Virus record (IMG/VR): IMGVR_UViG_3300037156_000269
Location: 96,626-160,625 of that record
Reading direction: 5' to 3' (one strand)
Length of the DNA stretch: 64,000 bases
DNA from: a virus
Taxonomy: Duplodnaviria; Heunggongvirae; Uroviricota; Caudoviricetes
Below the pieces are notes generated by a model, which did no database searches, was not told the origin of the DNA, and saw only the letters and a program-made list of their open reading frames with translations. Both the position numbers and the translations under genes were made by a program. Shown here one piece after another: positions 8,244 through 63,434 of this stretch (positions are counted from its first letter, which is position 1; each line of letters opens with the position of its first letter).

Positions 8244-9476
8244 TTAGAGTGGGATATCTACATCTGTGTCATAGACTTTATTATCGACCGCAGCAGTGGA
8301 ATTGTCAATAGTCCCTTCTTTTATGTCGTTCCGCGTGGGGCCGCGGGAGATCAGGTAGTGGGTTCCGCCGATCGCTCTCACTGCCGTTTTTGCAAACAGA
8401 TCCGCCGATATCATTCCGCGGATAGCTAGAACAACTTTGTCGTCTGTCTGATCCGCGCATGTTAGAACAAAATGTGGTGTTACGTTAAGATCAAAGGCTG
8501 TGATCAAATCCTCCTTAATTGTATCCACAAGAACGCCTTGATCGATAAGCCCAAATCGCAAGTCACCCTGATGCTCATTAGGGACGTTCGTCTCATCCAT
8601 AACCCCATCTGGCCGAGAAACCTCCCACGGCAGAGGTCCAGCTCCGTGACGAGTCAGGTAAGTTCTCGACACGTAGTACGCATCCAGTTTAGTTATCCCA
8701 ACTTCACGAGCAAGTTCTGCGACGTATGGAAGTCCGGTCTTCGAGTGTGTGGTGTGCGGGAAGTTGGGGTGGTCCATATCCAGCATGAGTCCTTGGGCAC
8801 CCTCGAAAATTAAATGCTGACCTTCGTCTGCTCCCTCGCAAAAACTGCCCCACATAATGCCATGAGCCCAGTTAGTTAGAGTACCGCAGTCTGAAAGGAA
8901 ATGGTCGATGATTCCACTATCGTGAAGATACGGAAGCTCACCATCTAACCCGAGCTCCTCCATTCTGCGCGGCACGTACTTGTCTCTAATCCACTGGAGT
9001 TTGTTCTTGAGTGTTTTCTGGTTGCTCAAATCTGTGTAGTGCAAGTTAAACGCGGTTTTGGTTCGCTGGAGGGTCTCGTTAAAGCCAGCGCCACAACTGC
9101 CGTGCCTCTTGTCGCCACGCTGCCTCTCGATCGCGTGGTTGAGTATTATGTCGAACGGGGTGGTCAAAGGGCATCTTGGATCAATGTAAATTGCTGGGGT
9201 CGGTATTTTATCTTTAAGCTCCGCGAACTCTTTTACAAAGAGAATTGGGTTCACAACGAATCCGCGTGCCAGAAATGTCGGAGCACCTGAGAAGCTGCCG
9301 CTTCCGAAATGGTGAAAGACATGGCGCTTGCCGTCTGTGGTTACTACAGTGTGGCCGGCCTGCGCGCCGCCGTTGAAGCGGACGACTGTCGCGCTACCCT
9401 GTGCCGCTAAATAGTCGACAGTTAGGCCTTTTCCCTCGTCTCCAAAATTTGCTCCTATAACAACTGATGTTCTCAT
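8244..9476 (-). CDS. adenylosuccinate synthetase family protein (PurA homologue; PurZ-like candidate)
   Basis: GDEGKG P-loop, RFNGGAQAGHT, FEGAQGLMLDMDH, TRHGAGP motifs conserved; guanine-specificity TKLD motif replaced by TCAD and GRRRRTGW region divergent. Confidence 0.8.
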   Translation of the reverse strand: MRTSVVIGANFGDEGKGLTVDYLAAQGSATVVRFNGGAQAGHTVVTTDGKRHVFHHFGSGSFSGAPTFLARGFVVNPILFVKEFAELKDKIPTPAIYIDPRCPLTTPFDIILNHAIERQRGDKRHGSCGAGFNETLQRTKTAFNLHYTDLSNQKTLKNKLQWIRDKYVPRRMEELGLDGELPYLHDSGIIDHFLSDCGTLTNWAHGIMWGSFCEGADEGQHLIFEGAQGLMLDMDHPNFPHTTHSKTGLPYVAELAREVGITKLDAYYVSRTYLTRHGAGPLPWEVSRPDGVMDETNVPNEHQGDLRFGLIDQGVLVDTIKEDLITAFDLNVTPHFVLTCADQTDDKVVLAIRGMISADLFAKTAVRAIGGTHYLISRGPTRNDIKEGTIDNSTAAVDNKVYDTDVDIPL

Positions 9477-9486
9477 AAATCTCCTT

Positions 9487-9524
9487 TAAAAATAAAAAGT
9501 CCCTACCTCGTTAAAGGTAGGGAC
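9487..9524 (-). terminator. rho-independent terminator-like hairpin
   Basis: 9-bp stem GTCCCTACC/GGTAGGGAC with 8-nt loop followed on the minus strand by a T-rich run, between the VWA gene and the purA-like start. Confidence 0.4.
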
Positions 9525-9700
9525 AAGGTGGGGCGTGTCTACAGTGGCCATTACTCAACATTCTGGCATGTACCACAGCTTCCCGCGCCGCCACCAAAAC
9601 AAAAGATGACGGTGTCCCTTCTGAGCCACTTAATCCCAGCGGCAGATACCGCAGGTAGTTCTAGCTCTATGCCCAGTCCATACACCGCCACCAAAAACAA

Positions 9701-10615
9701 TTACAAACTAACTACGCCATTCACTGAGGAATTGGTGCCTACTGTCAAACCACCGATGGCTTTTGAAACCACAAGAGCTGTCGACTTATCCCACGAATCC
9801 ACAACAGCCGCATGGTCAGTACCTTCAGCAACCTGAATAGTAGAGACTATAACTTCAGCCATCTTCGTATGATCTGCCAAGTGAAGCGCCCGCTGACCAA
9901 GAACTTTTTTCCACTTCTCATCGACCGATGGAAATTTACCATTTGAACCTTCATCTACGATGAGATGGAAAATTTCCCACTGCTTCGACGCCATTGTCAA
10001 AAGAGCGTCCATCGAGAAATCCGACTGGATCTCGTGACCAAAGATGTCTTTCAAGTTCTTCTTTAGAAGATGTGGAGTCGGCTCTTCGTCACCTACAGTG
10101 AACAGGTAGCCCTTTTTTCCGCGCTTCTCAAAACAGTCGATCTTGGTATGAAGTGCTGCGAAATACCATGCTAGAGCGTAGCCCTCGTACTCATTTCCGC
10201 CACCGCCCATTTCAAGGTAAAGCTTCTCTAAATCTGTTGCAATGCGGATATCGGATTCGAACTGAGTAGCCTGGAGGGGCGCACTGTCGCACTCAGCATC
10301 TCCGATAGCGAGGCAGCACACCTGAGGGCTTGTGACTGGCTTTCTGTCGTAGATATCTTTCATCAGAGTTGGAAGACCCTTACGGGCCATCGAATCAAGA
10401 ACACGACCCATCGAGCCCGTCACATCAAGACCGATAATGATGGCCGTCGAGTTGGCGTTGTCAGCCGAGTCACGTGACTCGCGAAACGTGATCTTCTTAG
10501 GGTCAAGATCCTCGTTCAGCTTACTCGAATAAATCTCTCTTGTGGACTTACTCGACATGCCGCTCGTTGTCGCGTACGTATCCCAATCACTTGGTTTCCA
10601 CGAACCGCTTCCCAT
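9701..10615 (-). CDS. von Willebrand factor A (VWA) domain protein
   Basis: MIDAS motif IIIGLDVTGSMG and VWA-like fold pattern. Confidence 0.7.
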   Translation of the reverse strand: MGSGSWKPSDWDTYATTSGMSSKSTREIYSSKLNEDLDPKKITFRESRDSADNANSTAIIIGLDVTGSMGRVLDSMARKGLPTLMKDIYDRKPVTSPQVCCLAIGDAECDSAPLQATQFESDIRIATDLEKLYLEMGGGGNEYEGYALAWYFAALHTKIDCFEKRGKKGYLFTVGDEEPTPHLLKKNLKDIFGHEIQSDFSMDALLTMASKQWEIFHLIVDEGSNGKFPSVDEKWKKVLGQRALHLADHTKMAEVIVSTIQVAEGTDHAAVVDSWDKSTALVVSKAIGGLTVGTNSSVNGVVSL

Positions 10616-10950
10616 CAGTTATCTCCTTGTGGTTGAACTTCCTCTTCAGACAGATCGAGGTGATCCAGAGCCCCTTCGAGGTGCTCCAAGTCACACAGAA
10701 CCAGTTTCTGAGCAACTTTGCTGTCATCGACTTCGAAGTAGTGCCCCACGATCGGATCGATGCTGTAAACGCCGCCCGGGTCTTCTGTGTCGTGAAACAC
10801 GTTGATTGAGACAACTAGGTTACCCTTAGCCGCGCGCACTCCTTGCAAAAGTGTGATGAGGTCGTCGACCAGAAGCGGTGTCGGCGCTGTCACCACTGCC
10901 TCCGTTTTTTCAGCATACTCCTCAGGTTCAAACGTAGATCCCATTCCCAT
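10615..10950 (-). CDS. hypothetical acidic protein
   Basis: 111-aa ORF. Confidence 0.4.
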   Translation of the reverse strand: MGMGSTFEPEEYAEKTEAVVTAPTPLLVDDLITLLQGVRAAKGNLVVSINVFHDTEDPGGVYSIDPIVGHYFEVDDSKVAQKLVLCDLEHLEGALDHLDLSEEEVQPQGDN

Positions 10951-10961
10951 AAATCTCCTTC

Positions 10962-11963
10962 TTACCCTACCGGGTAAATTTGTGATGGCTTCAGGTCCAT
11001 GACCGTAAAGCGTTTCGGACCAAAACTTTTAAGTAACACTTCATTCCATTCCTTATACGCGGCAAATGCGTCTTTTTGCGCCACTTCACCTAAACAATCC
11101 ATGAGCGCAACTGGAGCCGAGCTGCCCGGCCCCAGGATCTCACGCCCAGTGGCCTTTACAAGCTCCATGTCGGTCTTTCGCGACGCGCGCTTAGTAACCT
11201 TCACCTTCCACGGCAGAAGCCCGTGGGTGCGCTTTGAGACCTTCGCGATCGGCGCTCCGGCGGCCTTTGAATACCACCAGCCGCCCAGAACCGCGAGAGA
11301 GTGGTCGGCTGGATCGATGAACACCGTGTCAGGCGATATCTCGTTGTGACAAAGTTTCACAGCGTGCAGGTAGCACGCAAAATTGTGGAGGCGATTTTGG
11401 ATCCAAGCCACGTGCTTTGCGTCGATGTGGCCGTCATAATGCTCGAGCACATCGCGAAGCCGGATGAGTTCTGGGCGTTTGGTGATGTGAAGCACCAGAC
11501 GGTCGGCCTCTGTCTCGAAAGACTCAAAGTTCATCGGCAAGTACGGACTGATCTCTTTTTTCATTTGATCAGAAGAAAAAGGAAAGTCGACAATGGCATT
11601 GATTGCATTTTGCCATAGGTCTTTATGTTCTTTATCTAAAACATAAGTCACAGAGTCTGTGCCTAGGTAGCAGGTGCCAAGCTCGAATAGACTGGCCGTG
11701 TGGTATTTTACGTTACGACCCTTACCAGACTTATCCACAATGCGTATATAGGTCTGCCCCCTCCACTCGTCATTGGTTATTCTGATCTCGGCCTGCGCGT
11801 AAAGCCTGGCAATGTGCGAGAACACTTCAGTCGCCTGTTTATCTTTACAAACATCCGGGTGCCACTTCTTTGACAGGTCATGATACTCTTTTTTGACCAG
11901 CGAAGCCTCAACCGCGAACAGCTTCTCTGGATACTTGATGGCCAGGATTTCTGCTGCGGTCAT
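10962..11963 (-). CDS. J-domain (DnaJ-like) protein with uncharacterised C-terminal domain
   Basis: N-terminal KKEYHDLSKKWHPDV with HPD tripeptide in J-domain helix-II context. Confidence 0.6.
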   Translation of the reverse strand: MTAAEILAIKYPEKLFAVEASLVKKEYHDLSKKWHPDVCKDKQATEVFSHIARLYAQAEIRITNDEWRGQTYIRIVDKSGKGRNVKYHTASLFELGTCYLGTDSVTYVLDKEHKDLWQNAINAIVDFPFSSDQMKKEISPYLPMNFESFETEADRLVLHITKRPELIRLRDVLEHYDGHIDAKHVAWIQNRLHNFACYLHAVKLCHNEISPDTVFIDPADHSLAVLGGWWYSKAAGAPIAKVSKRTHGLLPWKVKVTKRASRKTDMELVKATGREILGPGSSAPVALMDCLGEVAQKDAFAAYKEWNEVLLKSFGPKRFTVMDLKPSQIYPVG

Positions 11964-12623: not shown

Positions 12624-12645
12624 AAATCTCCAGTGTAAACAAAAT

Positions 12646-12720
12646 GGCTAGATTGGCAGGATTCGAACCTGCGACCGCACGCTTAACAGGCGTGAGCTCT
12701 ACCTCTGAGCTACAATCTAA
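12646..12720 (-). tRNA. tRNA-Asn (anticodon GUU), CCA encoded
   Basis: Perfect 7-bp acceptor UAGAUUG/CAAUCUA, D-arm GCUC/GAGC, anticodon stem CACGC/GCGUG, loop CUGUUAA, T-arm GCAGG-UUCGAAU-CCUGC, discriminator G + CCA. Confidence 0.8.
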
Positions 12721-12797
12721 CAACAGGGCTATTATCCCTAATAGGTATAATGTCGCCCATCTTACCCTATTTCAAGCTTTCATTACCTAATTTAAAA

Positions 12798-12886
12798 TGG
12801 CGGAGCCTGCGTGATTCGAACACGCGCCAAGCTTTCGCGAGGACGGTTTAGCAAACCGTTGGTTTAAGCCTCTCACCCAAAGCTCC
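12798..12886 (-). tRNA. tRNA-Ser (anticodon GCU), class II, CCA encoded
   Basis: Acceptor GGAGCUU/AGGCUCC, anticodon stem ACGGU/ACCGU, loop UUGCUAA, long variable arm, T-arm GCGUG-UUCGAAU-CACGC. Confidence 0.75.
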
Positions 12887-12893
12887 GTAAAAA

Positions 12894-12981
12894 TGGCGGA
12901 AGACCCGAGACTCGAACTCGGACGACTTTTCAGTCTCGGCGGATTTCAAGTCCGCTGGTTTAGCCATTCACCCAATCTTCC
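12894..12981 (-). tRNA. tRNA-Ser (anticodon UGA), class II, CCA encoded
   Basis: Acceptor GGAAGAU/GUCUUCC, anticodon stem GCGGA/UCCGC, loop CUUGAAA, long variable arm, T-arm CCGAG-UUCGAGU-CUCGG. Confidence 0.75.
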
Positions 12982-12999
12982 ACAAAACCAAAACAAAAC

Positions 13000-13082
13000 T
13001 GGTGTCTAAGGCGAGACTTGAACTCGCAAGCCGAGGCCACGGGTTTTAAGCCCGCTGTGTTTACCAATTTCACCACTCAGAC
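13000..13082 (-). tRNA. tRNA-Leu (anticodon UAA), class II, CCA encoded
   Basis: Acceptor GUCUGAG/CUUAGAC, anticodon stem GCGGG/CCCGU, loop CUUAAAA, long variable arm, T-arm GCGAG-UUCAAGU-CUCGC, discriminator A. Confidence 0.75.
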
Positions 13083-13086
13083 ACTA

Positions 13087-13169
13087 TGGTACCCGAGACA
13101 GGACTTGAACCTGCACGCTTGCGCACCAGATCCTAAGTCTGGCGTGTCTGCCAATTTCACCACTCGGGC
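13087..13169 (-). tRNA. tRNA-Leu (anticodon UAG), class II, CCA encoded
   Basis: Acceptor GCCCGAG/CUCGGGU, D-region near-identical to the UAA Leu tRNA, anticodon stem CCAGA/UCUGG, loop CUUAGGA, T-loop UUCAAGU; two G.U pairs make it slightly less canonical. Confidence 0.65.
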
Positions 13170-14489: not shown

Positions 14490-14920
14490 TGGTGGAGGTA
14501 GCGGGGTACTGCCCCCCGCGTACACAAAACTGGTTTAGTACACTCTCTACATGCTTAGTCGGATTATGGCTCGGCTCGCCCGCTTGCAGTTATACTCGGC
14601 AAGCTCACGATTTGGAGACGATTATGGCCGTCATCCTCCACCAGATGGTTTGTTTATCCCCGTCCAACAACGAGGTTCCGCCTAACTTATTAGAGAGGGG
14701 CGCGGCATCGTTGTCCCTCTTGCCAGTCTTAGGTATCAAGGCTCCTGGCGGCCCCGGCACTACTGCTGTTTAAGCAGCGATGCGATCGGCAGTAGCCTTG
14801 CGGCTAAAGTCGACGTGTGTAACATTGCTGTTAGCACTTATTGTTTTACCCATTTAAGAGACCTTGGGTGCTCTGCATGCAAGTGTAGTTCCAGTCCCAT
14901 GGCGAATCTAAGTTACCCCC
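14490..14920 (-). ncRNA. ssrA: tmRNA (transfer-messenger RNA)
   Basis: 5' GGGGGUAACUUAGAUUCGCC pairs with 3' UACCUCC-A-CCA giving a G3.U70 pair; 14-mer GACUAAGCAUGUAG and CCCAAGGU blocks shared with E. coli tmRNA; tag ORF AAUAAGU-GCU... encodes ANSNVTHVDFSRKATADRIAA-stop (about 14772-14835), closely resembling E. coli AAUAGUC-GCA... Confidence 0.85.
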
Positions 14921-14925
14921 ATAAA

Positions 14926-15144
14926 TTAATCTACTAATACTTTATTTCTCTTGTTTTTCAGTTTAGCTTCCATGACCTTCATTTTCGACACGCAGTTCAT
15001 CATGTACCAATCGCCGTCATTATCCAGCCACCTTTGCAGAATCTTTTTTGGATTACGACGGATCTCTTCGGGATTAAGGTGGTCATTTAACTCAATGGTC
15101 GTGTCAATCTTGATGAGCGCTTCAATTCGGACTTCTCTGCCCAT
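14926..15144 (-). CDS. hypothetical protein
   Basis: 72-aa ORF with conserved start context. Confidence 0.35.
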   Translation of the reverse strand: MGREVRIEALIKIDTTIELNDHLNPEEIRRNPKKILQRWLDNDGDWYMMNCVSKMKVMEAKLKNKRNKVLVD

Positions 15145-15170: not shown

Positions 15171-15644
15171 CTATTCTATACTTTTTTCATTCTCTTTTGC
15201 AAGCTCTTGAAGAAACCCAAAGAGATTATCGAACTCTTCATTCCGGAAAGCGTGGTACAGAAAGCCTTTAGGCTCGCTCATATCACCCAGATTGTGCCTG
15301 TTGATGCGCACATGTTCTAAGAGTCCGCGCTCGGTCAGGAAGACGTTCTGGACCTCCTGATGACTCTTGTACGGTATCTTCTCCACCAACTCAAGGTCGT
15401 GCTCTGGGTCGTTCTCCAGAAGCTCTTCCATTGAGCTGAAGGGCTCGTTGCCGTGCCTGTCTTTGTACCAGTACCCGTCGTTGTCGTAGCCGTCAGCGGC
15501 TGGGTAAACGATGTCCCGACGCAGGGCGAAGAAGTACGGTTTCGCCGTCGCACGGTTGTCCTGTCTTTCAATCTCGGTCGCTAGGCTTTTTAGGAATTCA
15601 TAAGACTTTTTGCTGATAGTGATTGTTACTTTTTCGTCGGACAT
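15171..15644 (-). CDS. hypothetical protein
   Basis: 157-aa ORF. Confidence 0.5.
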   Translation of the reverse strand: MSDEKVTITISKKSYEFLKSLATEIERQDNRATAKPYFFALRRDIVYPAADGYDNDGYWYKDRHGNEPFSSMEELLENDPEHDLELVEKIPYKSHQEVQNVFLTERGLLEHVRINRHNLGDMSEPKGFLYHAFRNEEFDNLFGFLQELAKENEKSIE

Positions 15645-16465: not shown

Positions 16466-17218
16466 CTAGATCATGCCTGGGGCCGTAGCCTCAACATCCT
16501 CGGCGGAGGCTTGCTGCATGCTTTCCTTAAAATCTTCATAGGTCTCAACGGTGATTTTGATATCTTTAATGTTGATCAGCTCTGAGTCGACTTCTGTGAT
16601 ATAATTTCGAAAAGTCGTTACGCTCTTTGGGATACTAATTTTCCCTCTCCTGAAGTCCAACCCCATTTGTGTAATGCGCCAGTTTCCGGTACGACGACTA
16701 TCCACTGCTGCTATTAAGCCCCAATGGTCCATTTTTCCAAAATTTGAACTTTTAGATTGTCCACCTGGGGCCGAAATAAACCTATCGAACAACTCTTGCA
16801 CGTGAATGGTTTCATTCGGATCGTTGGGGAAGTCTAGAAGAGCACCAGCCAACAGTTTACTCATACTTGACGTGCTCTTCATCAACGGGGCATGACAATG
16901 TTCGCAGTATTTTTTCTTACCGCTGTAGTAAACATCCGCATAGGTGTCGGGATCGAAAAACGCATCGTAGCGGGCATTGCCATGCCCTGTATAAGCGCCA
17001 ACCCTGGGAGCCTCACCGTCACCTAGACGGTCGAGAACCACCTGGACGGTATTCTTTACTCTTTTTGTTGCCGCATCATAACCTTCGCTGACTGCCTTAA
17101 GAAATTGTCGAATTTGTTGTGCAGCTTCTGGAGAGGTTGTGGCAAACTTTGCAGCCAGATACTCCAAATCTTTGACATTTAATGCTGTTCTGTTTGTGTC
17201 TATTTTAAAATCTTCCAT
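16466..17218 (-). CDS. hypothetical protein
   Basis: 250-aa ORF with conserved start context. Confidence 0.5.
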   Translation of the reverse strand: MEDFKIDTNRTALNVKDLEYLAAKFATTSPEAAQQIRQFLKAVSEGYDAATKRVKNTVQVVLDRLGDGEAPRVGAYTGHGNARYDAFFDPDTYADVYYSGKKKYCEHCHAPLMKSTSSMSKLLAGALLDFPNDPNETIHVQELFDRFISAPGGQSKSSNFGKMDHWGLIAAVDSRRTGNWRITQMGLDFRRGKISIPKSVTTFRNYITEVDSELINIKDIKITVETYEDFKESMQQASAEDVEATAPGMI

Positions 17219-17354
17219 GAATCTCCTTAAAGTTGCTTCACAAGTGCTTTAATCTCACGAACCAAATTATCATACTCGATGTGCTCTTGCCAAGTCTCTG
17301 GTTTACCTAGATTTACAAGTTTCTCTATAGCTGAGTTGAGCCGGTCTACAAGTC

Positions 17355-21413: not shown

Positions 21414-21821
21414 TTAAATTTTAAGTTGTCTCCAGTTCCTCAGCAGATAGCTTGTCTGCCGAGTTACATCCAAGATCGTGCTTATACCCCGCACCACGTT
21501 CACGTCATCCTCTGGAATGAAGTGAGAGTAGTTCACAGTCAGCTCCGTGCCTTCGGAGATCCGCCACCGCGTAAACACCATGCCAAACAGATAAACGCAG
21601 TTTGGTTTATCTGAGTGGTTGATGTAGTCGGTGTCTTCTTTCTCGCCGTCAATGTACAGATACCCAAACAGACGAATGGCTGTCTGGTTCTCCTGCGAGT
21701 ACTGCTTTCGCCCGACGATTTGTGAGCTTCTCAGCCAGTTGATGACGAGCTTCCCTTGAGGCAAGTTCTGGGTCGCGAAGAGTCCGTAGCCGTGAATTGA
21801 GGAGTTGCGTTTCTCTAGCAC
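21414..21821 (-). CDS. SET-domain protein (putative lysine methyltransferase)
   Basis: GYGLFAT (GxG), YINHSDKPNC (NHSxxPN) and GTELTVNY (ELxxxY) motifs in SET order; 135 aa. Confidence 0.75.
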   Translation of the reverse strand: MLEKRNSSIHGYGLFATQNLPQGKLVINWLRSSQIVGRKQYSQENQTAIRLFGYLYIDGEKEDTDYINHSDKPNCVYLFGMVFTRWRISEGTELTVNYSHFIPEDDVNVVRGISTILDVTRQTSYLLRNWRQLKI

Positions 21822-22241: not shown

Positions 22242-22551
22242 CTTTAACCCCCTCGATCATCCACATAAGTAAGTACGCTGTAGCGTACGGGTGCGGGCAT
22301 TTGGCCAGAAGTTCCCGTGAAACAAAATCCTCGCCGGTGTTCTCAACCCAATTCAAGAGCACCCGGTGCTCTTGCTCAGTTAATTCGTCATAAGCGAGCT
22401 CGAACATCTGGTCTCCGAAATCCTCCTCTTCATCTTGTATGATGCCAGCTAGTAACTCAGAAAGCTTTTCCCCAAACAGCGAAAACTTATCTCTTGCATC
22501 TAAAATTTCCATTTGAATCTCCTGTTTACTGTTGTACGACCGTAACCTCAT
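22180..22551 (-). CDS. hypothetical acidic protein
   Basis: 123-aa ORF. Confidence 0.4.
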   Translation of the reverse strand: MRLRSYNSKQEIQMEILDARDKFSLFGEKLSELLAGIIQDEEEDFGDQMFELAYDELTEQEHRVLLNWVENTGEDFVSRELLAKCPHPYATAYLLMWMIEGVKDDRSGQDTTHQASESILVDK

Positions 22552-24283
22552 CCACTTCTGTTTCTACCTTCGCCACAAACGTCTGAAGATCGGCCGGAAC
22601 TAAATAACGCCACTGATCCATTAATTCAGTGTCGTCCACGAAGAGCCACGACGGAGCTCGCGCGCCTGCTGCTTTTCTGAGCGACACGCAAAACGACATA
22701 TCTGACTTCATTTTTCTGCCAGAAGACAAACTTGAGTATGGAATGCCGCCAGCCGAGATTGCCAAGCTCCCATCCACCAACTCCACATCAACACCCTCAA
22801 CCTGCAACGTCTCTAGAATTTTCCTAGTTTCTACTTTTGGAAGATCCTTGAGTGCCTGCTCGAGAGCGCCGTAGTCCGCACACTGGCGCTCTTTCACAGC
22901 GATAGCTGACACAAGTAAACTTTCCTGCTCACGCATCTGCCCAAGCTGAGTCGCCTGGCGCTGTGCCACGTTGAGTGCCGTACTGATGTCGAGCTGCTGT
23001 TGGCGCAAAGTCTTCTCATCACCGGGCGGTTTTTCAGGTGCCGCAGGCTCCTTGATCTTCTGAATCTCAACGAGCTCACGCTGAAGCTTTACTAGGTTAG
23101 CCTCTACATTGGCTTTACTTAGCGTCAGCTGCTTGTGCTCGCTTTTAAGATTTGTAAGATCAACCATAATGCCCTGGGCCTCGTCGAGCCCCATCTTAAT
23201 CGTGGCGTTCACTTTCTCATTGAACGTCGCGATCTCGCGCGCCTCTTTATTGTAGGCGAGAAGCTCCTTCTCATAAGACCCCATGATGTGATTCACGTGG
23301 TCCTCACCTACCGTCTGGCCGCAAGCATCGCACTTGGATCCGGCTTTTGGCGCCGCCGGCTTCTTTGGGGGAAACGGGACAGGTTTTAATTTCTTACCCA
23401 AAGTCACCGTAGCCGCGCGAACATCGCCTTCTTTCTTTGTGAGCTGAGCGATCGTATCTTCCATAAACTTGAACTGTTCTGGAGGTGGCACTTTAGATGC
23501 CAAAATCCCCGCCTCGATAGCGCCGCGGCGGTTGAGGGACTCACCAAAACGCATTGCGTCGGTCTGGTATTTAGCCAGAGCCTGGCGGTAGAAATCGTGG
23601 GCCGCGAGCTGCGCGTTCAGGTCGTTTAAGGCGCCGGAGTAGGATTCAGTGTCTACATCGTCCTGGGCGGTCAGCTGTGAGAGTTGGGCCCTGACCTGGC
23701 TCAATGCCCCCTCATCCGAAGCTTTCACGTTCTGGAGCTGTCTGCGTTCGCCTGCGATGGCATCAGCATCGATCTTGGGGCTCACGAGCTTCACCTTGGC
23801 CGGGATCTGCGTCCCTGCCGGGAGCATCGACTGAAGAAGGGCCCTGCGATCGACGGCCGCGAGCTCTCCTAAAACTGCAAGCTGCTTCACATCTTTGAGC
23901 GACATGAAGTAGCCGGCGTTCCAGCAGCACATGAAGGTGTCGAGCTTAAGCTTTAAAAGAGCCTCGAGCTCCGTCTGGTTCATGGAGACAGGGGGCAAGG
24001 CGCCACGCGCGAACTTAATAACACTTGTCTTGCCTCGGGCCTTTGTGCGCGTAATGGTCGCATGCTGTGTTGTAACCGACACCTCGGTCTTGTCCTGGCC
24101 TTTTGTGATGAGGTGGTCGGGGCTGTTGCCATTGGAGTCGGTGCCGTACCACACGAAAGCGAACGCTTCCTTCACGGTACTTTTGCCAGACTCGTTCGGT
24201 CCACAAATGATGTTAATGTTTGGTCCGAATTCGAGAACTCGGCAGTGACCGCGAAAGTAGTTCATGCTGACTGTTTTAATCAT
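22526..24283 (-). CDS. SbcC/Rad50-like SMC-family ATPase
   Basis: N-terminal Walker A GPNESGKST, long coiled coil, C-terminal signature/Walker-B-like LFVDDTELMD. Confidence 0.7.
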   Translation of the reverse strand: MIKTVSMNYFRGHCRVLEFGPNINIICGPNESGKSTVKEAFAFVWYGTDSNGNSPDHLITKGQDKTEVSVTTQHATITRTKARGKTSVIKFARGALPPVSMNQTELEALLKLKLDTFMCCWNAGYFMSLKDVKQLAVLGELAAVDRRALLQSMLPAGTQIPAKVKLVSPKIDADAIAGERRQLQNVKASDEGALSQVRAQLSQLTAQDDVDTESYSGALNDLNAQLAAHDFYRQALAKYQTDAMRFGESLNRRGAIEAGILASKVPPPEQFKFMEDTIAQLTKKEGDVRAATVTLGKKLKPVPFPPKKPAAPKAGSKCDACGQTVGEDHVNHIMGSYEKELLAYNKEAREIATFNEKVNATIKMGLDEAQGIMVDLTNLKSEHKQLTLSKANVEANLVKLQRELVEIQKIKEPAAPEKPPGDEKTLRQQQLDISTALNVAQRQATQLGQMREQESLLVSAIAVKERQCADYGALEQALKDLPKVETRKILETLQVEGVDVELVDGSLAISAGGIPYSSLSSGRKMKSDMSFCVSLRKAAGARAPSWLFVDDTELMDQWRYLVPADLQTFVAKVETEVDEVTVVQQ

Positions 24284-31535: not shown

Positions 31536-32354
31536 TTACTTCTCATTCTTCAAGTTGATGAAGGGGACCGCGCCGCCTCCAGAAACCTGTGGTAATTTTC
31601 CGTCCCACTTCTGCAAAGACAAGTATTGCAGGAGTGCTGGTGAAAGGCTCTGCGTCTTTAGACGGTTCGCCTCAGCCTCACCACGAGCCACTGCGATCGC
31701 TTTTTCAGCTTCCGCGCGCGACTGCGCAACTTCGTTCTCGATCTGCATGGCCTTCTGAGTAGCCTGAATCTTAGCGTTCAGCGCCTCGATTACACCCTCT
31801 GGAGGACGCATAGCGCCGACAGCGTAGATGTTGATTACGTGAATACCGACAGGCTCAACCTGTTCGTTGACTTCCTTAGTCACGTCTTTAAGCAGTTCCT
31901 CTTTCTTAACCCCAATGATGTCACCAACATGGTACTTGCCGCTTACATTACCGAACGTGCTTCGAACAATGTTCCGGAGCTGACCGTGCGTGATCTCATC
32001 AATTCCAAGACGGTACGTTGTGAACAGGTGCGCGACCTTGTCAGGCACAACCTGGTACGCGATACCGATGTCAGCGCCAATGCTCAGACCATCAATGTCC
32101 TGAAACGTAATAGACTCATCGTGCGTAGCGCCTTCGTGCGGACTAGCTGTCCACACGTAGTTCTGCTGGAACGTCGGGAACAGGTAAAGCTCGACAGTCG
32201 GTGGGAGCCAATAGTAGCCAACGCCAACCACTTCATTCTCAACGCCCTTGTCGGAGCCCATTGTTCTAACCTTGACCCCAACAAAACCTTGGGGAACCTT
32301 CGAGCACGCGGATAGGGCAAAAGCCAGGACCAAAAACAAACCAAACTTCTTCAT
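31536..32354 (-). CDS. SPFH/band-7 (prohibitin/HflC-like) domain lipoprotein
   Basis: Lipobox LVLAFALSAC, band-7 core and C-terminal EAE/Ala-rich coiled coil. Confidence 0.75.
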   Translation of the reverse strand: MKKFGLFLVLAFALSACSKVPQGFVGVKVRTMGSDKGVENEVVGVGYYWLPPTVELYLFPTFQQNYVWTASPHEGATHDESITFQDIDGLSIGADIGIAYQVVPDKVAHLFTTYRLGIDEITHGQLRNIVRSTFGNVSGKYHVGDIIGVKKEELLKDVTKEVNEQVEPVGIHVINIYAVGAMRPPEGVIEALNAKIQATQKAMQIENEVAQSRAEAEKAIAVARGEAEANRLKTQSLSPALLQYLSLQKWDGKLPQVSGGGAVPFINLKNEK

Positions 32355-41068: not shown

Positions 41069-41455
41069 GTGAACGTAGCAGAAATCGCACGAATCGCGCA
41101 CCAGGTAAATAAGGGATATTGTGAGGCCATGGGTGACATGAGCCAAAAAGATTGGCACGTGGCCCCTGAGTGGCAGCGTGACTCTGCAATCAATGGTGTT
41201 GGTTTTATCATCTCCAATCCGACAGCAACTCCTAAAGAAGTCCATGAGGGTTGGAAGAAGCAGAAGATCGCTGAGGGCTGGACCTACGGACCAGTAAAGG
41301 ATGAGGCTAGAAAAGAGCATCACTGTATTGTAGAGGATTACAATATGCTCCCTCTAGCACAGCGCGTGAAAGATAATTTGTTTAGAACAGTTGTTCTGTC
41401 TTTATGTGAGCCAACAGCAAAGGAAGAAGATGTTGCCATACAGCCAGGAGTTTAA
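41069..41455 (+). CDS. hypothetical protein
   Basis: 128-aa ORF, first gene of the plus-strand block. Confidence 0.45.
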   Translation: MNVAEIARIAHQVNKGYCEAMGDMSQKDWHVAPEWQRDSAINGVGFIISNPTATPKEVHEGWKKQKIAEGWTYGPVKDEARKEHHCIVEDYNMLPLAQRVKDNLFRTVVLSLCEPTAKEEDVAIQPGV

Positions 41456-57728: not shown

Positions 57729-60700
57729 TTACAGCTCGGGCTCATCATCGGAAACTACTTTAAGATGCCCCTGATTACCACCACTTTCTCTACGAACTTT
57801 TGACTTTGCATCGGCTACTGGAATCTCAAAGCCGAGGGATTCACACTTGACGGGCCAGACCCGGACAACGCTTTTGTTTGGAGACCGGATCTGGACGGAA
57901 TACCGCCCGTCTTCGACGTCCATGGAGTCCACACCAAGGTGGCCCTCTTCAAAGAGCTGCCGCGCAACGTGACTCACGACTTGTGAGCTTGCGGTGTTCT
58001 TTTTCATCATATCCGAAACGAGCCCGTGGGCAATTTGCGGATAAATGTAAATAACGTCTGGTGTCTTCTCTCGCCAGAACCCGATCGGTTTGCACCCCGA
58101 ATTCCGCTCGATAAGCATCGTGTCTCTCCAGCCAGCAATTTCGTAATGGGCCGCGTCTTGGATAAGCTCTTTGAGAGCTCCCAAAAACACCGTAGCGCCA
58201 GTAGCGTTGTTAACTGACTTAAGGACCTTGCCTCGGATTCCAACCAGATTCCCGTTGTGCGTGCGACAGAGCTCGTCCCTTTGCACTTCCGGGATCGCTC
58301 CGCGGGCAACCAGCATATCCATACAAAGCCTGAAGGCCAGCATGTTAAGGGCCAAATTTTCGCAGATACGGTTCGGGCTGACTTTCCTGTGGGTTTTAGC
58401 CACAGGGTTGTAGAACCCTTGGTAGTACTCGTCCCAAAGAGTTTTGATTTCCTCTTTTGGTAGCCCGAGACAAAACTGAATAAAATAGGGAGTAAACCCA
58501 TTGTACTCAGTCCTGCGCATTTTCACGCGTCCACCGGTTTCCAGATTTTCCTTAAACGGAACATCCACCAACAAAAGACGAGAAATAGCGCTCGACTCGT
58601 TCTCAACAATGTCCTCGCCAGTCACGCACAAAAGTCCACGGACTCGGTCCACTTTCTTGCGCTGCACACCATTTCTATCTAGTGCTGGCCGCCCACCGCG
58701 GTCATAGGTCACTTGGATAAGGCCCGGCATCTCAGTACCCCACTGATCGACAAGCTTGCGCTTGTAGTCATCAATGAGCATGAAAGCGTGCCTGCAGTTG
58801 TACCCGTTTGCGAGTTTTGACTTCGCCGTGCCGCTTGCACTCTGGACCATCTTGAAGACACCAAAGAAGTTTTGAGCCGCTTCGGCAACAAACGTCTTTC
58901 CTCCGGAGAAGGACCCACCAAGCCAAAGAACAGGGCTTTTGTTGAACCCCGTTGCAACCTCGACTTGCGGCAGGATAACGGATGCCATCGCGTGCGCAAA
59001 AGTCGTCATGGTCAAGACAGCGTTGTTACACGTGAAGTAGTCCGCCACGATATGCTGTGCGAGGTCTTTGAACTCCTCCTCGTCGAGAATCTTGAAATCA
59101 AGACTCTTTGAGAAGTCATCAGCAAAGACTTCCACACCGAACTCCTCGTTTGGTCGGATAGACTCTTTATCTATCATAACCGAGGGCATGATATAGACGT
59201 CTTGCCCCTTAAGAGTGTGGTGTCCGATCTGGCGAGAGACTTTCTTGTGAACGATCTGCTCTTGCGAAAACCCGTTGATGCAGTTTCGGATATGATCGTA
59301 AGCAGGCCGGTTGTATTGAAGCTTCGACCCCGCGAGCTGAGTGAGCGTTCTGAAGAACGTGTCAGACGACCCGGTCCATTCGCGGTAGTTCACGTCAAAA
59401 GGAATTTTCTCGTTTCCGACGTAAATTGTGCCACGAAAGCCCCTGTCCTCAGCCGACTCTGCGTTGTTTAAGTCTGCGCCATCTGCCGCCCTAAGAAGTG
59501 TAAGCTCTTCATGAATCAGGATGTGGAAGTTCGTGATGATCTCTTCTTGTTTGATTCCGTTATTATCGCGCCATGTTCTGACGTAACAATTGTTCTGCAA
59601 GAAAAACTCATTACCTCCAACAGACTTAAAGCTCCGGCCTGTCTTGCGACGGGTCTGATCCTTAGTTTCTGCCTGCTCCTTCTTGAACTCTTTCTCATGC
59701 GCTTTCATCTCGCTGACCTTCATCCATTTATTGGATGTGATATGCGATTCTATGCGCTTGTAGTCCTCAGCCCCTAGCCGCTTCGCACAGCGAAGAAGCG
59801 CCTTGATGCGTTCCTCTGGGTTGTCCGGAAGATAGTCCTTCACGTCAGCGTCTTTAGCCTCGCCAGCTTTAGCTGTCTTTGACCGCGCTTTCAGTGCCTT
59901 GAAGATGTGCGAGAGTCTTCCGATGATGTCGTCAGCACTTAAGTGCCGATCTTCGGCAAAGCGAATAGGACTTGGATCTGGCCACAGATCTTCCGAAAGC
60001 CCCTCTGGATTTATCTTTCTGACGCCCTCTTCGTACACAACAGGAGCAAGCCTCTTTAGACAGTGATCGTCATATTTAGGGTGCAGCCCTTTTGTGCACG
60101 CGTGATTGAACTGCATTGTTTTACAGGACATTGGCGCATAGCCGGCGGCGATAGCAAAGTCGATCTTCTTAGCGGTCTCTGCGTCGTTCCAGCGCTTTTT
60201 TACGATGTCGATGCCATTCTTAGTGTTAACCGCTAACTGGATACTGGAGTAGTAATTCTCCTGTGGGATCTTCCCATCTCTATCAGGATACAAACTATCA
60301 TAAGCAAACTTACCAGTCTCATCCTTAGCCCAATATTGCTGCATTGCTGGGCACCCCTCGACGATGCTCCAGAAATCACCAAACTGTTTAATGGCGAGCT
60401 TGCCTTCGTCCTTCCCCTCGGCCTTGCGCGCCTTTTGACGGTTCTGGCTGGCTGGAGCTTGCAGAATCTCTACATTTTGTACCTGTAATACATTTCGGAA
60501 GTCGGCTGGCAAAATGAGCTGAGTTGACTCCAGATAATCCCACTGTTTGTCTAGCGGAAGCGGAGCTTCAAAGTCATCCATCCAGCAGTTGCGTCCTTCG
60601 CGCATTTTCATGTCGTTCATCGGCACCTTGATCCCATTGCCGGTGCCGTTGACATCGTACGAGCGTTGCTTTGGAAAGACCTCGGGCATACCCGCTTCAG

Positions 60701-61259
60701 GTGTGACCTGATACCTGTGGAAGAATCCGAGCTCCTCAAATAGATGCCTGATGTAGCTGGTGAATTCCGTCGGTACAATAAAGTCGCTAAAGAACCAGTA
60801 AATGTGATAGCCCTTGCTGGTGCTTTTCGCGATGTAGCACGGAACACCGAAACTTAAGCTCAGATCGCGCATGTTCTTAGCATCTTCGAAAACGGTTCCG
60901 CGATCAAAGTCTACAACTCCGAAGCGGATACCTTCTTCGCGCATCATGAGCAGAATAATTTCCTGCTCACCTGACAAGTGCTTCCAGATTTCTTTGTCTG
61001 TAAGTTCTGTGTAGTCGCGGTGGCTGCACTCACCGCAGCTGCCTCTCGGTTTTTGCATGAGAAGACAAATCTCTGGTGGCTTACCGTAGTTCGAGCACGC
61101 AGGCATACCCCACTTCTTCTCCACCCAGGTCTCTTCTCCGGTAACCTTATCTACTTCTTTTACTCTGATAGGATAGCTGACCAGAAACCGGTCCTGTCTT
61201 GCGACGAACCGGGATCTGAACAAATCGACCTTTTTCTTCCATGGGTCTATAGTCGTCAT
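57729..61259 (-). CDS. bifunctional primase-polymerase / D5-like SF3 helicase (replicative primase-helicase)
   Basis: N-terminal Cys cluster and prim-pol-like SKGYHIYWFF block; central D5_N-like region; C-terminal Walker A GGSFSGGKT of SF3 helicases; 1176 aa uninterrupted. Confidence 0.8.
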   Translation of the reverse strand: MTTIDPWKKKVDLFRSRFVARQDRFLVSYPIRVKEVDKVTGEETWVEKKWGMPACSNYGKPPEICLLMQKPRGSCGECSHRDYTELTDKEIWKHLSGEQEIILLMMREEGIRFGVVDFDRGTVFEDAKNMRDLSLSFGVPCYIAKSTSKGYHIYWFFSDFIVPTEFTSYIRHLFEELGFFHRYQVTPEAGMPEVFPKQRSYDVNGTGNGIKVPMNDMKMREGRNCWMDDFEAPLPLDKQWDYLESTQLILPADFRNVLQVQNVEILQAPASQNRQKARKAEGKDEGKLAIKQFGDFWSIVEGCPAMQQYWAKDETGKFAYDSLYPDRDGKIPQENYYSSIQLAVNTKNGIDIVKKRWNDAETAKKIDFAIAAGYAPMSCKTMQFNHACTKGLHPKYDDHCLKRLAPVVYEEGVRKINPEGLSEDLWPDPSPIRFAEDRHLSADDIIGRLSHIFKALKARSKTAKAGEAKDADVKDYLPDNPEERIKALLRCAKRLGAEDYKRIESHITSNKWMKVSEMKAHEKEFKKEQAETKDQTRRKTGRSFKSVGGNEFFLQNNCYVRTWRDNNGIKQEEIITNFHILIHEELTLLRAADGADLNNAESAEDRGFRGTIYVGNEKIPFDVNYREWTGSSDTFFRTLTQLAGSKLQYNRPAYDHIRNCINGFSQEQIVHKKVSRQIGHHTLKGQDVYIMPSVMIDKESIRPNEEFGVEVFADDFSKSLDFKILDEEEFKDLAQHIVADYFTCNNAVLTMTTFAHAMASVILPQVEVATGFNKSPVLWLGGSFSGGKTFVAEAAQNFFGVFKMVQSASGTAKSKLANGYNCRHAFMLIDDYKRKLVDQWGTEMPGLIQVTYDRGGRPALDRNGVQRKKVDRVRGLLCVTGEDIVENESSAISRLLLVDVPFKENLETGGRVKMRRTEYNGFTPYFIQFCLGLPKEEIKTLWDEYYQGFYNPVAKTHRKVSPNRICENLALNMLAFRLCMDMLVARGAIPEVQRDELCRTHNGNLVGIRGKVLKSVNNATGATVFLGALKELIQDAAHYEIAGWRDTMLIERNSGCKPIGFWREKTPDVIYIYPQIAHGLVSDMMKKNTASSQVVSHVARQLFEEGHLGVDSMDVEDGRYSVQIRSPNKSVVRVWPVKCESLGFEIPVADAKSKVRRESGGNQGHLKVVSDDEPEL

Positions 61260-61298: not shown

Positions 61299-63434
61299 TC
61301 ATACCCGAGATTCGCCTCTTTTGATCAGCCTCTCGGCCATCTCGACCGCCACGTCGCCCACACTGCTTGCAGAATCGAATAGAATGTCCCTTCCTTGGGC
61401 TTTGAACCCGAGGACATCCATCAAGTCATGGTCTACAGTAGTGCTTCCGTCGGAAAGGGATGCCAGGCTGTGAATAACAAAGATGCTACTCTTTTGCCCA
61501 AGGCGTTCGATTCGCTTGGCGGTCTGATAATAGTATTCAAAATTGTAATCAAGCGAAAGGAAAAGAAGATAACTGGCCGCAGTCAGGGTGATCCCGTGCG
61601 CCGCAGCTTGTGGTTGTAACACCATAATCTTTATTTTGTCCGTCGTTTGAAAATCCCGAATGTTTTCATTACGCTTGTGAACCGGCTCATCTCCAAAAAT
61701 TGCTGCGACACCTAGATGTTTGTACCTGTCTAAAAGCGTGTAAATTTCTTGTTTGAACTGACACGCAATGACAAGCTTCTCGTCACCAAGTTCATCGATA
61801 AACCCGTCTAGATCTTCAAGCTTAGGGTTGACATCGAAAACTCCTTTAGTACTTTCTTCGCCGACAATGTAGCCAGAGGTGATTTGTCTCAGCTTCATCA
61901 TCTTCGAGAGAACGTTCACGGCCTCAGACCTGATGTTGTTCCTGGTCGCTGGGTCCATGAACTCCGTCAGCAGTTGCTCTTCCATCTCCAGATACGCACG
62001 CTCCTGCTCTCCCGTCATGCGCACGTTGCGCCTCATGTCGGTGCGCGGAGGGAGGTCAATACAGTCGCGTTGTTTAAGGAAGATAGACGAGCGTTTTACT
62101 TTGGCAATAAGACGATCGCGATCTTGTGCGGACCTGACGACCCACTTCACTTGACCTGGACCGCCCATCTGCACGGGCAAGAAGTACTCAGCGTGAAAGT
62201 CAGCCACAGATCCTTCGAGCGTCAGCCCTCGGTCGAGAAAGTAAAACTGTGCCCACAGATCATCAAACCCATTTGGGTTCGGTGTTCCTGTGAGGACGTT
62301 TCGCCTTTTCGCTTTCCAGCTGATGTCGATGTGAGCTTGCGTGACGCTCGATCTTGCGTTTTTGATCTTGGTCGACTCGTCCACAATGACCCAGGCAAAG
62401 TTATGGGCTTTGAGCTGCTCCTGATAGGATTTCACCCCATCGTGGTTGATGAGAAAGAGATCGTAAGAAGGATTGTTTAGCATGGAGAGCACGCGATTCA
62501 CTTTCGTATTCTCTTTAATAGCGGTTTTTCCGATAACAGTACCGAAAGGCCTGCTTTCGCCATTGAGATTATACGAGTAGCTGATGCCAGCCTTGTACTT
62601 GATCCAGTTCGCCTCGTCTGCGCGCTCGAGCGCCGTGAGTTTCGGAAGAACGGCACCTGTGACTTGGTTTTTCCACAGAACCTGATTCTTCTTTTTCACA
62701 CTCACAGAGTCCGCAGGCTTCACGCCGTAGTTGTGAATTATTTCCGCTTCGCCGAGGATGTCTTTGTTGCTGATCTTGGACCAGAGGATTCCAGCCTTGA
62801 GATGCGTAAACTTCGCGATGTCATCCATCCAGCTCGTTTCCAAAATGGAAAGTGGAGCGGAGATGAGGACCTTACCACGCATAATGTCGCCCTTAGCCAG
62901 CTGTAATTCGACAGCTCTGGCGGCGCTGCCGGTCTTCCCAACTCCGCAGTCTGCATATACGCCACTGTAGCAGGTTTCCTGCATTACACCAACAATTTTT
63001 GTTTGGTGACTGTAGGGTATAAATTTGCCATTTGGTTCAATTGGAATGCTGTCTTTTGACATGACTTCAGCGAGCTTTACTGCGTGTCGATTATACTCGA
63101 CCAGCTTCTGCCTCTCCTGATCCATAAAAAAGGACCCGCCTTTTACGACGGGTTTCTTGGCTCCAGTGAACACGGTGTAAATTCGGTTTAGATTGGCAGC
63201 ACTTCTGGTGTACTCAAACACACCAGGAATGTCGGACTTGGCCGAGCCTGTGATCCTGGCCGCGATCGGCCAGTCGGCAGGGTCAGAGACGTAGAGCGTG
63301 ATGCCTTTGGCATCGATTTTGATTTCGTTCATCAGAACTTCCAATCTGCTTGTGTGCGGATTTCTTTTTCTTCCCAACACCCTCCGTTGAGCCATAGAGT
63401 GTACTCGTACACAACGGCATAGCGTTCTAGCCAT
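61299..63434 (-). CDS. SNF2-family (SF2) helicase
   Basis: Motif I ADCGVGKTGSA, motif II VIVDESTKIKN (DExH-box, SNF2-like DEAHRIKN), conserved C-terminal helicase lobe. Confidence 0.8.
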   Translation of the reverse strand: MARTLCRCVRVHSMAQRRVLGRKRNPHTSRLEVLMNEIKIDAKGITLYVSDPADWPIAARITGSAKSDIPGVFEYTRSAANLNRIYTVFTGAKKPVVKGGSFFMDQERQKLVEYNRHAVKLAEVMSKDSIPIEPNGKFIPYSHQTKIVGVMQETCYSGVYADCGVGKTGSAARAVELQLAKGDIMRGKVLISAPLSILETSWMDDIAKFTHLKAGILWSKISNKDILGEAEIIHNYGVKPADSVSVKKKNQVLWKNQVTGAVLPKLTALERADEANWIKYKAGISYSYNLNGESRPFGTVIGKTAIKENTKVNRVLSMLNNPSYDLFLINHDGVKSYQEQLKAHNFAWVIVDESTKIKNARSSVTQAHIDISWKAKRRNVLTGTPNPNGFDDLWAQFYFLDRGLTLEGSVADFHAEYFLPVQMGGPGQVKWVVRSAQDRDRLIAKVKRSSIFLKQRDCIDLPPRTDMRRNVRMTGEQERAYLEMEEQLLTEFMDPATRNNIRSEAVNVLSKMMKLRQITSGYIVGEESTKGVFDVNPKLEDLDGFIDELGDEKLVIACQFKQEIYTLLDRYKHLGVAAIFGDEPVHKRNENIRDFQTTDKIKIMVLQPQAAAHGITLTAASYLLFLSLDYNFEYYYQTAKRIERLGQKSSIFVIHSLASLSDGSTTVDHDLMDVLGFKAQGRDILFDSASSVGDVAVEMAERLIKRGESRV

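Follow-up and report, generated by a model that had tools for sequence, protein, structure and literature searches.

Does the stretch of DNA analysed here (the window: 64,000 nt, positions 96,626 to 160,625 of the IMG/VR virus record IMGVR_UViG_3300037156_000269) carry a transfer-messenger RNA (tmRNA) gene belonging to the virus, or is the tmRNA-like sequence on its minus strand a piece of a host ssrA? In the Rfam scan of the whole window the tmRNA family RF00023 matched at 14490-14920 (-) with 89.2 bits (E 2.6e-33, the gathering score of the family being 47), the same coordinates, to the base, as those given in a first-pass annotation made from the letters of the sequence. The alignment is untruncated and spans model positions 1-374 of 374, and the match is the sole tmRNA match in the window. 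The strong covariance-model match, together with the core elements of the molecule and the covariation among its relatives, supports the identification of the RNA as a bona fide, complete tmRNA. As argued below, it is very probably the functional tmRNA (ssrA) gene of a large (~175 kb), previously undescribed phage-like genome.

Structure of the tmRNA gene

The elements of the gene, in window coordinates, are as follows (nt numbers refer to the RNA).

14490..14920, minus strand: one-piece tmRNA gene, complete, with encoded CCA; 431 nt; RF00023, core helices recovered in the fold
14914..14920, minus strand: 5' strand of the acceptor stem, GGGGGUA (nt 1-7), paired with nt 421-427
14902..14913, minus strand: D-loop analogue ACUUAGAUUCGC, with UAG in place of the UGG of standard tmRNA
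14875..14901, minus strand: 5' strands of helix 2 (nt 20-30 and 34-46), including GCAUGC; paired with nt 366-398 in the fold
14848..14874, minus strand: pseudoknot 1, with stem 1 AGAG/CUCU (nt 47-50/61-64) and stem 2 ACCCA/UGGGU (nt 52-56/69-73), from the stem list
14770..14835, minus strand: tag reading frame, 21 codons (ANSNVTHVDFSRKATADRIAA) and UAA; resume codon GCU at 14833-14835, UAA at 14770-14772
14756..14783, minus strand: helix 5 (nt 138-165), whose loop holds the stop codon, from the minimum-free-energy fold
14561..14755, minus strand: region of pseudoknots 2-4 (nt 166-360), with a long hairpin GGGGC..GCCCC / GCCAG..CUGGC and further candidate stems
14523..14560, minus strand: 3' strands of helix 2, including GACUAAGCAUGUAG, from the fold and the comparison with E. 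coli
14501..14519, minus strand: T-arm GCGGG-G-GGCAGUA-C-CCCGC (nt 402-420), from sequence and fold
14490..14500, minus strand: 3' strand of the acceptor stem, UACCUCC, the discriminator A73 and the encoded CCA, from the Rfam match and sequence

The ends of the RNA, GGGGGUA and UACCUCC, form a 7-bp acceptor stem with the G3.U70 pair and are followed by A73 and CCA, as the first-pass annotation had read them. In the minimum-free-energy fold this acceptor stem is formed together with a T stem of 6 bp that closes a loop of 7 nt (the GCGGGG/CCCCGC stem proposed earlier is thus present both in the sequence and in the fold), helix 2 and helix 5. The tag frame has no start codon; it lies in the resume context AAUAAGU-GCU-AAC and ends with GCU GCU UAA, its UAA (nt 149-151) being located inside the hairpin loop of helix 5. 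The resume context, the Ala-Ala end and the stop codon agree with the earlier reading of the frame, the lower boundary of which, however, is to be moved from about 14772 to 14770 with the stop codon included. Pseudoknot 1 was identified from stem lists and reading by eye, with no statistical test, and a script choosing the best-scoring stems preferred others in the window tmRNA to AGAG/CUCU and ACCCA/UGGGU.

Sequence blocks had been described as shared with E. coli tmRNA, and the comparison with the E. coli K-12 ssrA gene, retrieved by its coordinates, bears out the 14-mer. The 14-mer GACUAAGCAUGUAG is common to the window tmRNA (position 361) and the E. coli gene (position 297) and occupies a homologous site in helix 2. 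In contrast, ACCCAAGGU sits in helix 2 of E. coli ssrA but in pseudoknot 1 of the window tmRNA; these places are not homologous and the match is a coincidence. As the likeness is confined to short blocks, the tmRNA had no match when all complete E. coli genomes were searched with blastn.

Conservation among relatives and the elbow of the molecule

Relatives of the gene were sought by scanning for RNA families within 10 kb on each side of homologues of the PurA-like adenylosuccinate synthetase of the window, and one more locus, L045, was added by a search of IMG/VR with a pattern of the tag motif. Gene order and protein similarity connect L035, L036 and L038 with the window, while L045 is related by the tag motif only. 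Their tmRNAs, with Rfam scores, are the following.

L035, contig of 119.5 kb: tmRNA at 4598-5034, 125 bits
L038, contig of 164 kb: tmRNA at 6030-6438, 114 bits
L036, contig of 182 kb: tmRNA at 16904-17331, 95 bits
L045, contig of 134.6 kb: tmRNA at 10654-11056, 70.9 bits

The tmRNA of L035 directly follows an ortholog (58% identity) of the window open reading frame (ORF) 15171-15644 (157 aa), and a long run of neighbouring genes is common to both loci. More remote homologues of this ORF in IMG/VR (L004-L006, 32-35% identity) have no tmRNA within 10 kb.

As RNA, the window tmRNA and those of its relatives are mutually 42-56% identical. Nevertheless, G3.U70 is invariant in all six related tmRNAs, and compensatory changes occur in acceptor pairs 4-7, in helix 2 and in helix 5; they were found in 29 of the 50 predicted pairs in a five-sequence alignment and in 20 of 36 in a six-sequence alignment. 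Pseudoknot 1 of L035 occupies the same place with a different sequence (CGCGG/CCGCG and GCAU/AUGC, by eye), the script agreeing for stem 1; in L008 (ACCAG/CUGGU and GCAUC/GAUGC) the agreement is full.

The tag peptides can be compared directly:

window: ANSNVTHVDFSRKATADRIAA
L035: (S)GDNVIHADFGAKHAKVSRVAA
L036: VNDNVIHVDFAAARQARDAAREVRMAA
L045: (E)NDNVIHVDFGKRKQVEVPLAA

They have the common motif xN(D/S)NV(I/T)H(V/A)DF and the common end [ILVM]AA. Within the motif, the codon differences between these four frames are mostly synonymous (GTT/GTC, GTC/GTG/GTA, GAC/GAT, TTT/TTC), so that the pattern looks like that of a translated frame under purifying selection. The DNA pattern of the motif had nine matches in IMG/VR, only two of them in tmRNAs and the others due to chance; two contigs brought in by such chance matches (IMG/VR, 159 and 164 kb) carry ROOL RNAs (RF03087, 298 and 337 bits) at L043 1-542 and L051 11890-12492. 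Judging from these comparisons, the tmRNA is inherited with the element and is under constraint both on RNA structure and on the encoded peptide. Synteny, compensatory changes and homologous tags together exclude an attachment-site remnant and a decaying relic and make a pure decoy unlikely.

A feature on which the first-pass annotation was silent is the T-loop, which does not conform to the canonical UUCRANY. It can be drawn either as GGCAGUA on a 6-bp stem or as the 9-nt GGGCAGUAC on a 5-bp stem (GCGGG-GGGCAGUAC-CCCGC). GGCRGUA is the consensus T-loop of the Rfam family alpha_tmRNA, which represents functional tmRNAs of alphaproteobacteria and to which the arm of the window adds one G and one C flanking the loop. 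The T stem-loop itself is present, and its loop co-varies with the D-loop analogue.

The arm was traced with the pattern GCGGGNGGCNGTANCCCGCNNNCTCCA, in which the stem sequence is fixed, so that the counts are uninformative on the frequency of this loop type. Matches were obtained in five IMG/VR contigs, 21 metagenome contigs and two of 185,579 species genomes. The arm of the window recurs identically in 29 other loci, and both N positions beside the loop are always G and C. Most of the pattern loci scanned with Rfam are one-piece or permuted tmRNAs; L014, L015 and L030 (short or end-of-contig fragments) gave tRNA matches only, L028 and L024 gave no match, and a tmRNA at these five loci is unconfirmed. 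Two-piece permuted tmRNAs with the same T-arm were observed at L003 167-522, L007 11099-11497 and L009 3194-3517, and also in L013, L016, L020, L022, L025, L027 and L032 (IMG/VR and metagenome contigs); one permuted tmRNA of this type has 12 tRNA genes next to it on a viral contig of 176 kb. L002, L031, L017 and L029 have low-GC one-piece tmRNAs with the variant T-arm and without encoded CCA (3' ends ...CUCCAUUA or ...CUCCAUUG), whereas the window gene encodes CCA.

We considered whether the variant arm is specific for viruses and rejected this, as GCGGGGGGCRGUACCCCGC is found on a chromosomal ssrA in a metagenome-assembled genome (MAG) of Clostridia. The gene order there (L011 4055-7934) is rnr, ORF, smpB, ssrA, and the SmpB protein is 43% identical to that of E. 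coli. A Saccharibacteria MAG (L010 2235-2615) also has the arm, among neighbours which look bacterial from their ORF translations, read by eye. By analogy with the chromosomal ssrA located downstream of smpB and rnr, the variant T-arm should be regarded as one that works in cells.

The type of the arm differs even inside the phage group: L035, L038 and L045 have canonical loops (UUCGAUU or UUCAAUA), while the window, L008 and L036 have the variant. All 13 tmRNAs in which the T-loop is of the variant type have UAG or UAAG in the D-loop, and all four canonical ones, including that of E. coli, have UGG. Read with the standard tRNA numbering, the elbow of the variant would thus have A18/G55 instead of the G18-pseudouridine 55 contact, would keep G19-C56 and would replace U54-A58 by G54-G58. 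Since the D-loop tracks the T-loop in every case, the variant looks like a coherent alternative elbow and not like damage.

The variant loop was also considered as the reason why the tRNA and tmRNA gene finder ARAGORN gave no tmRNA in the window. It can be a partial explanation only: among the four tmRNAs of the clade on which the program was run, it detected that of L038 alone and missed those of the window, L036 and L035 (Rfam scores of 89-125 bits), the last of which has a canonical loop. ARAGORN was used in the published surveys, and as it missed three of four tmRNAs in this clade, the published frequencies of phage tmRNAs are probably underestimates.

The carrier and the rival explanations

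The genes between 0 and 40 kb of the window are nearly all on the minus strand and mostly small. In total, 129 ORFs were called, and all those of at least 85 aa were scanned against Pfam. The landmarks are listed below.

57729-61259: AEP primase, 1176 aa (profile search)
61299-63434: SNF2 helicase (profile search; PHROG match)
22526-24283: SbcC-like ATPase (profile search; PHROG match)
8244-9476, minus strand: PurA-like adenylosuccinate synthetase (profile search; PHROG match)
12645..13169, minus strand: tRNA array Asn, Ser, Ser, Leu, Leu (ARAGORN and Rfam), 1.3 kb downstream of the tmRNA and on the same strand

Further profile matches in the window comprise HU, SET, SPFH, C5-methylase, HNH, phage-metallopeptidase (PhageMetallopep), DUF932 and HTH, and a Phage_T4_Y07C domain is recorded for the same sequence in an independent assembly. 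The tmRNA thus lies more than 14 kb inside phage-type genes on one side and about 49 kb on the other, the contig of the element being 175 kb long. Its setting is reproduced in the Logan assembly of SRR12354357, which contains the same tmRNA-flanking genes and, letter for letter, the 45 nt at the 3' end of the tmRNA. The helicase and the PurA-like protein of the window are identical to clustered proteins (representatives P0001 and P0121), for each of which the longest listed contig is of 175,117 bp, and the helicase has dozens of relatives (43-76% identity), many of them on contigs of 155-181 kb.

No DNA match to deposited phages was found in 50,697 records, either by blastn of the tmRNA or by megablast of the surrounding 10 kb; for the primase, neither deposited phages nor IMG/VR gave a relative, and an exact 22-mer from helix 2 of the tmRNA has no match in IMG/VR. 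Because DNA likeness to deposited phages and relatives of the primase in deposited phages and IMG/VR are both lacking, the carrier belongs to a group of phage-like genomes not described before and represented by contigs of 120-182 kb. Its relatives carry genes typical of phages, namely of the Acb2/Tad1 and Acb5 types, for NAD salvage (NARP-type) and for cell-wall hydrolases (lysin-type), and the contig of one of them is listed in IMG/VR.

In the region 8244-11963 of the window (minus strand), the PurA-like gene and an adjacent ORF of 304 aa are kept in all six relatives examined (L035, L036, L038 and L040-L042), and a DnaJ-like ORF upstream in five of them, being undetected in L036. PHROGs names the family of this synthetase with a PurZ-type label; nevertheless, its reading as PurZ, implying a 2-aminoadenine genome, is unsupported, and the protein, with an identity of 46-58% to many adenylosuccinate synthases, bacterial enzymes among them, is probably PurA. 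A protein with an OB-fold and an HD domain (window 166-1152) is conserved in L035 and more weakly in L036. Unusual accessory genes include those for a SET-domain protein, a papain-family (C1) peptidase, an SPFH/Band-7 protein and a RyR-domain protein (window 21414-21821, 4898-5725, 31536-32354 and 41069-41455, respectively).

Besides the array, the window has a tRNA with the anticodon CUA (7420-7494, minus strand), amber-suppressor-like, which ARAGORN labels 'Pyl' and which scores 60 bits with the Rfam tRNA model. It is directly preceded by an ORF for a PTH2-like peptidyl-tRNA hydrolase (7502-7828, minus strand; 22.7 bits versus a cut-off of 23). The L035 ortholog of this ORF is 59% identical and reaches 26.9 bits, and the pair of tRNA and PTH2-like gene is kept in L035 (15550-15959). 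Recoding of TAG by means of this tRNA is unsupported in the window, where TAG ends 18 of the 129 ORFs and the genes are unfragmented.

Several observations weigh against a functional phage tmRNA. Pseudoknots 2-4 cannot be cleanly separated, this region of about 195 nt having many candidate stems and a low Rfam posterior probability, and here the MAFFT alignments were too poor for counts of covariation. Of the two kinds of search suggested in the first-pass annotation, the covariance model gave the match of 89.2 bits, but ARAGORN made no tmRNA call, reporting only the six tRNAs of the window. The T-arm departs from the canonical tRNA-like form, and its 6-bp stem would make an acceptor/T helix of 13 bp. 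Three more distant relatives (L040-L042) are without a tmRNA within 10 kb of PurA. Finally, neither the 64-kb window nor the 10 kb that follow it yielded a recognisable virion, terminase or lysis gene; just beyond the window end, seven ORFs, five of which have 226-975 aa, were scanned with PHROG and gave a weak sigma-factor match only. The assignment of the carrier to phages thus depends on gene content and relatives.

Part of these observations would be expected if the gene were a decaying, non-functional relic of a tmRNA acquired from a host, namely the missing ARAGORN call, the weak alignment over pseudoknots 2-4 and the non-canonical T-loop. We hold this to be very unlikely: the stems are kept by compensatory changes and G3.U70 by all six diverged relatives, the tag frames are open and homologous, the change of UGG to UAG in the D-loop accompanies that of the T-loop in 13 of 13 cases, and the same T-arm occurs on a chromosomal ssrA beside smpB. 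The atypical T-arm could also fit a decoy RNA, which would titrate host SmpB, alanyl-tRNA synthetase (AlaRS) or EF-Tu and so inhibit trans-translation instead of tagging proteins. There is a precedent for it among phage tmRNA-like RNAs: a decoy role has been proposed for the RNA of mycobacteriophage DS6A, which consists only of a tRNA-like domain (TLD), and a phage tmRNA-like molecule of this TLD-only kind inhibits tmRNA upon expression in E. coli (cited in PMC4131195 and PMC11915505). The window RNA, however, retains the entire mRNA-like domain (pseudoknot 1, the resume context, the frame of 21 codons and the stop in helix 5), and its tag is conserved as a peptide although the RNAs are only 42-56% identical; a decoy needs none of these, and this explanation seems to us improbable.

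The ssrA gene is a classic attachment site. As tmRNA genes are common sites of integration, the locus might represent a host ssrA copy or fragment captured or duplicated at a prophage junction, as in E. coli K-12, where the prophage CP4-57 and its integrase begin inside the 3' end of ssrA. This explanation is largely refuted, and we give it hardly any credence: the window gene is full length and not a 3' fragment, no integrase match was found among the ORFs of at least 85 aa in 64 kb, the neighbours are neither smpB nor housekeeping genes, the phage-type genes extend far on both sides as described above, and homologous tmRNAs and tags are present in related elements, in one of them at the same locus. 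The gene is therefore encoded by the phage-like element, in line with the first-pass annotation, to which it looked virus-encoded and unlike an attachment-site remnant on the grounds of phage-like flanking genes and the lack of an integrase. As to the carrier, it could be another large mobile element (a megaplasmid or conjugative element) harboring a tmRNA and tRNAs. The absence of recognised virion, terminase and lysis genes, of DNA matches to isolated phages and of protein matches for the primase is compatible with this, DUF932 and HTH genes are common on plasmids too, and there are reports of putative plasmids of large size that carry genes for translation (PMC7162821). On the other hand, the PHROG matches of the helicase, the SbcC-like ATPase and PurA, the Phage_T4_Y07C and PhageMetallopep domains, the small ORFs densely arrayed in one direction and accompanied by tRNA clusters, the gene content of the relatives (Acb2/Tad1-type, Acb5-type, NAD-salvage and cell-wall hydrolase genes) with one contig in IMG/VR, and the fact that no conjugation or partition genes were seen argue for a phage, and we consider a non-phage carrier unlikely.

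Proposed role and comparison with known tmRNAs

The analysis shows what the gene is, that it is complete, that it belongs to the phage side and that it is conserved under structural and coding constraint. With a functional phage tmRNA as the preferred explanation, its expression, charging, use of SmpB, tagging activity and benefit to the phage are inferred. The stop codon of ORF 14926-15144 lies only 5 nt upstream of the mature 5' end of the tmRNA, which suggests that the gene is co-transcribed with the upstream small ORFs and that the transcript then undergoes processing of the tRNA type; a scan for promoters and terminators gave nothing beyond chance. The RNA would be trimmed by the tRNA-processing enzymes of the host, and the host AlaRS would add alanine, guided by G3.U70 and A73. 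Host SmpB and EF-Tu should then bring it to ribosomes that have come to a halt at the 3' end of an mRNA which is broken or lacks a stop codon. The use of host SmpB, AlaRS and EF-Tu is presumed because no SmpB was found in the window: the ORFs of at least 85 aa gave no match to PF01668, nor to integrase, capsid or terminase families, and tblastn with the SmpB proteins of E. coli and L011 as queries had no match with E below 0.8, either in the window or in the loci of its relatives. Translation would resume at GCU, append the 21-residue peptide ANSNVTHVDFSRKATADRIAA and end at the UAA in the loop of helix 5, after which the ribosome would be freed and the tagged fragment with its Ala-Ala end passed to host proteases. 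In this way the phage would probably gain an extra capacity for ribosome rescue during infection, when ribosomes may be trapped as a result of mRNA decay, nuclease-based host defences and perhaps read-through. Similar benefits were suggested for other phage tmRNAs (PMC9004378, PMC7162821).

A more far-reaching proposal, which we put forward as a speculation and regard as rather doubtful, is that of a virus-borne tmRNA lineage with a conserved tag decapeptide and a switching tRNA-like elbow, being part of a rescue kit. The conservation of the N-terminal decapeptide xN(D/S)NV(I/T)H(V/A)DF suggests a dedicated adaptor or protease, possibly of the phage, beyond recognition of the C-terminal Ala-Ala alone. 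The elbow switch (UUCGAUU with UGG versus GGGCRGUAC with UAG and the extra pair) might adapt the RNA to the SmpB and EF-Tu of different hosts or, alternatively, might let it escape a host factor which targets the canonical T-loop. If this proposal is true, the tmRNA, the nearby amber-suppressor-like tRNA and the PTH2-like hydrolase would constitute a phage-encoded kit for ribosome rescue.

Phage tmRNAs as such are already known, and what is new here is modest: an undescribed phage-like clade, a conserved family of tags, an elbow of the alpha type that has one additional pair and occurs in a one-piece RNA, and evidence of undercounting by ARAGORN. The analysis adds a structurally complete tmRNA to a phage-like group which has no cultured or deposited representative. 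Its inheritance under RNA and peptide constraint argues that phages use trans-translation actively and that such genes are not mere ssrA debris. The paired change of T-loop and D-loop, with the extra pair in the T stem, offers a natural test case for the tolerance of SmpB and EF-Tu at the tmRNA elbow.

Compared with the standard one-piece tmRNA (RF00023, e.g., E. coli SsrA), the window tmRNA has the same acceptor with G3.U70, A73 and CCA, helix 2 with GCAUGC and GACUAAGCAUGUAG, pseudoknot 1, an A-rich resume context followed by GCN-AAC, an Ala-Ala tag end and a stop codon in the loop of helix 5. It differs from E. coli SsrA in length (431 versus 363 nt), in the tag (21 versus 10 residues, unrelated past the initial AN), in the T-loop (GGCAGUA with the extra G-C pair versus UUCAACU) and in the D-loop (UAG versus UGG). 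Unlike a standard bacterial ssrA, it lies in a phage-like genome with no smpB adjoining. With the alphaproteobacterial two-piece tmRNA (RF01849) it has in common the T-loop GGCRGUA and the D-loop UAG; in contrast to the latter, it is not circularly permuted, its T stem is one G-C pair longer, and its best family is RF00023.

As for phages, a listing of 2014 comprised eight Bxz1-type mycobacteriophages, Bacillus phage G and the TLD-only DS6A (PMC4131195), and huge phages were found to carry tmRNA and SmpB (PMC7162821). The statement in the first-pass annotation that tmRNAs are known from only a few large phages is outdated: of the 18,146 phage genomes covered by an ARAGORN survey, 402 had tmRNA genes (133 distinct, 53 two-piece; PMC9004378). 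For these tmRNAs, as for that of the window, the function is not experimentally established (PMC4131195, PMC7162821, PMC9004378). Like the known phage tmRNAs (those of the Bxz1 group, Bacillus phage G, huge phages, Melnitz and pelagimyophages), that of the window is complete and resides in a large phage-like genome with tRNA genes and no integrase match. It differs from them in its own tag family, xN(D/S)NV(I/T)H(V/A)DF...AA, and in belonging to an undescribed clade with no DNA likeness in the 50,697 records. In contrast to that of Melnitz it is one-piece and has no riboswitch match in Rfam, and, other than in some huge phages, an smpB was not seen within the 64 kb of the window, about 111 kb of the genome lying outside it. 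With the duplications of the ssrA 3' end at prophage sites it has in common the position of tmRNA sequence next to phage genes; however, those cases are short 3' fragments or, as in E. coli, an intact host gene beside an integrase, while the window gene is complete, internal, with no integrase nearby, and conserved.

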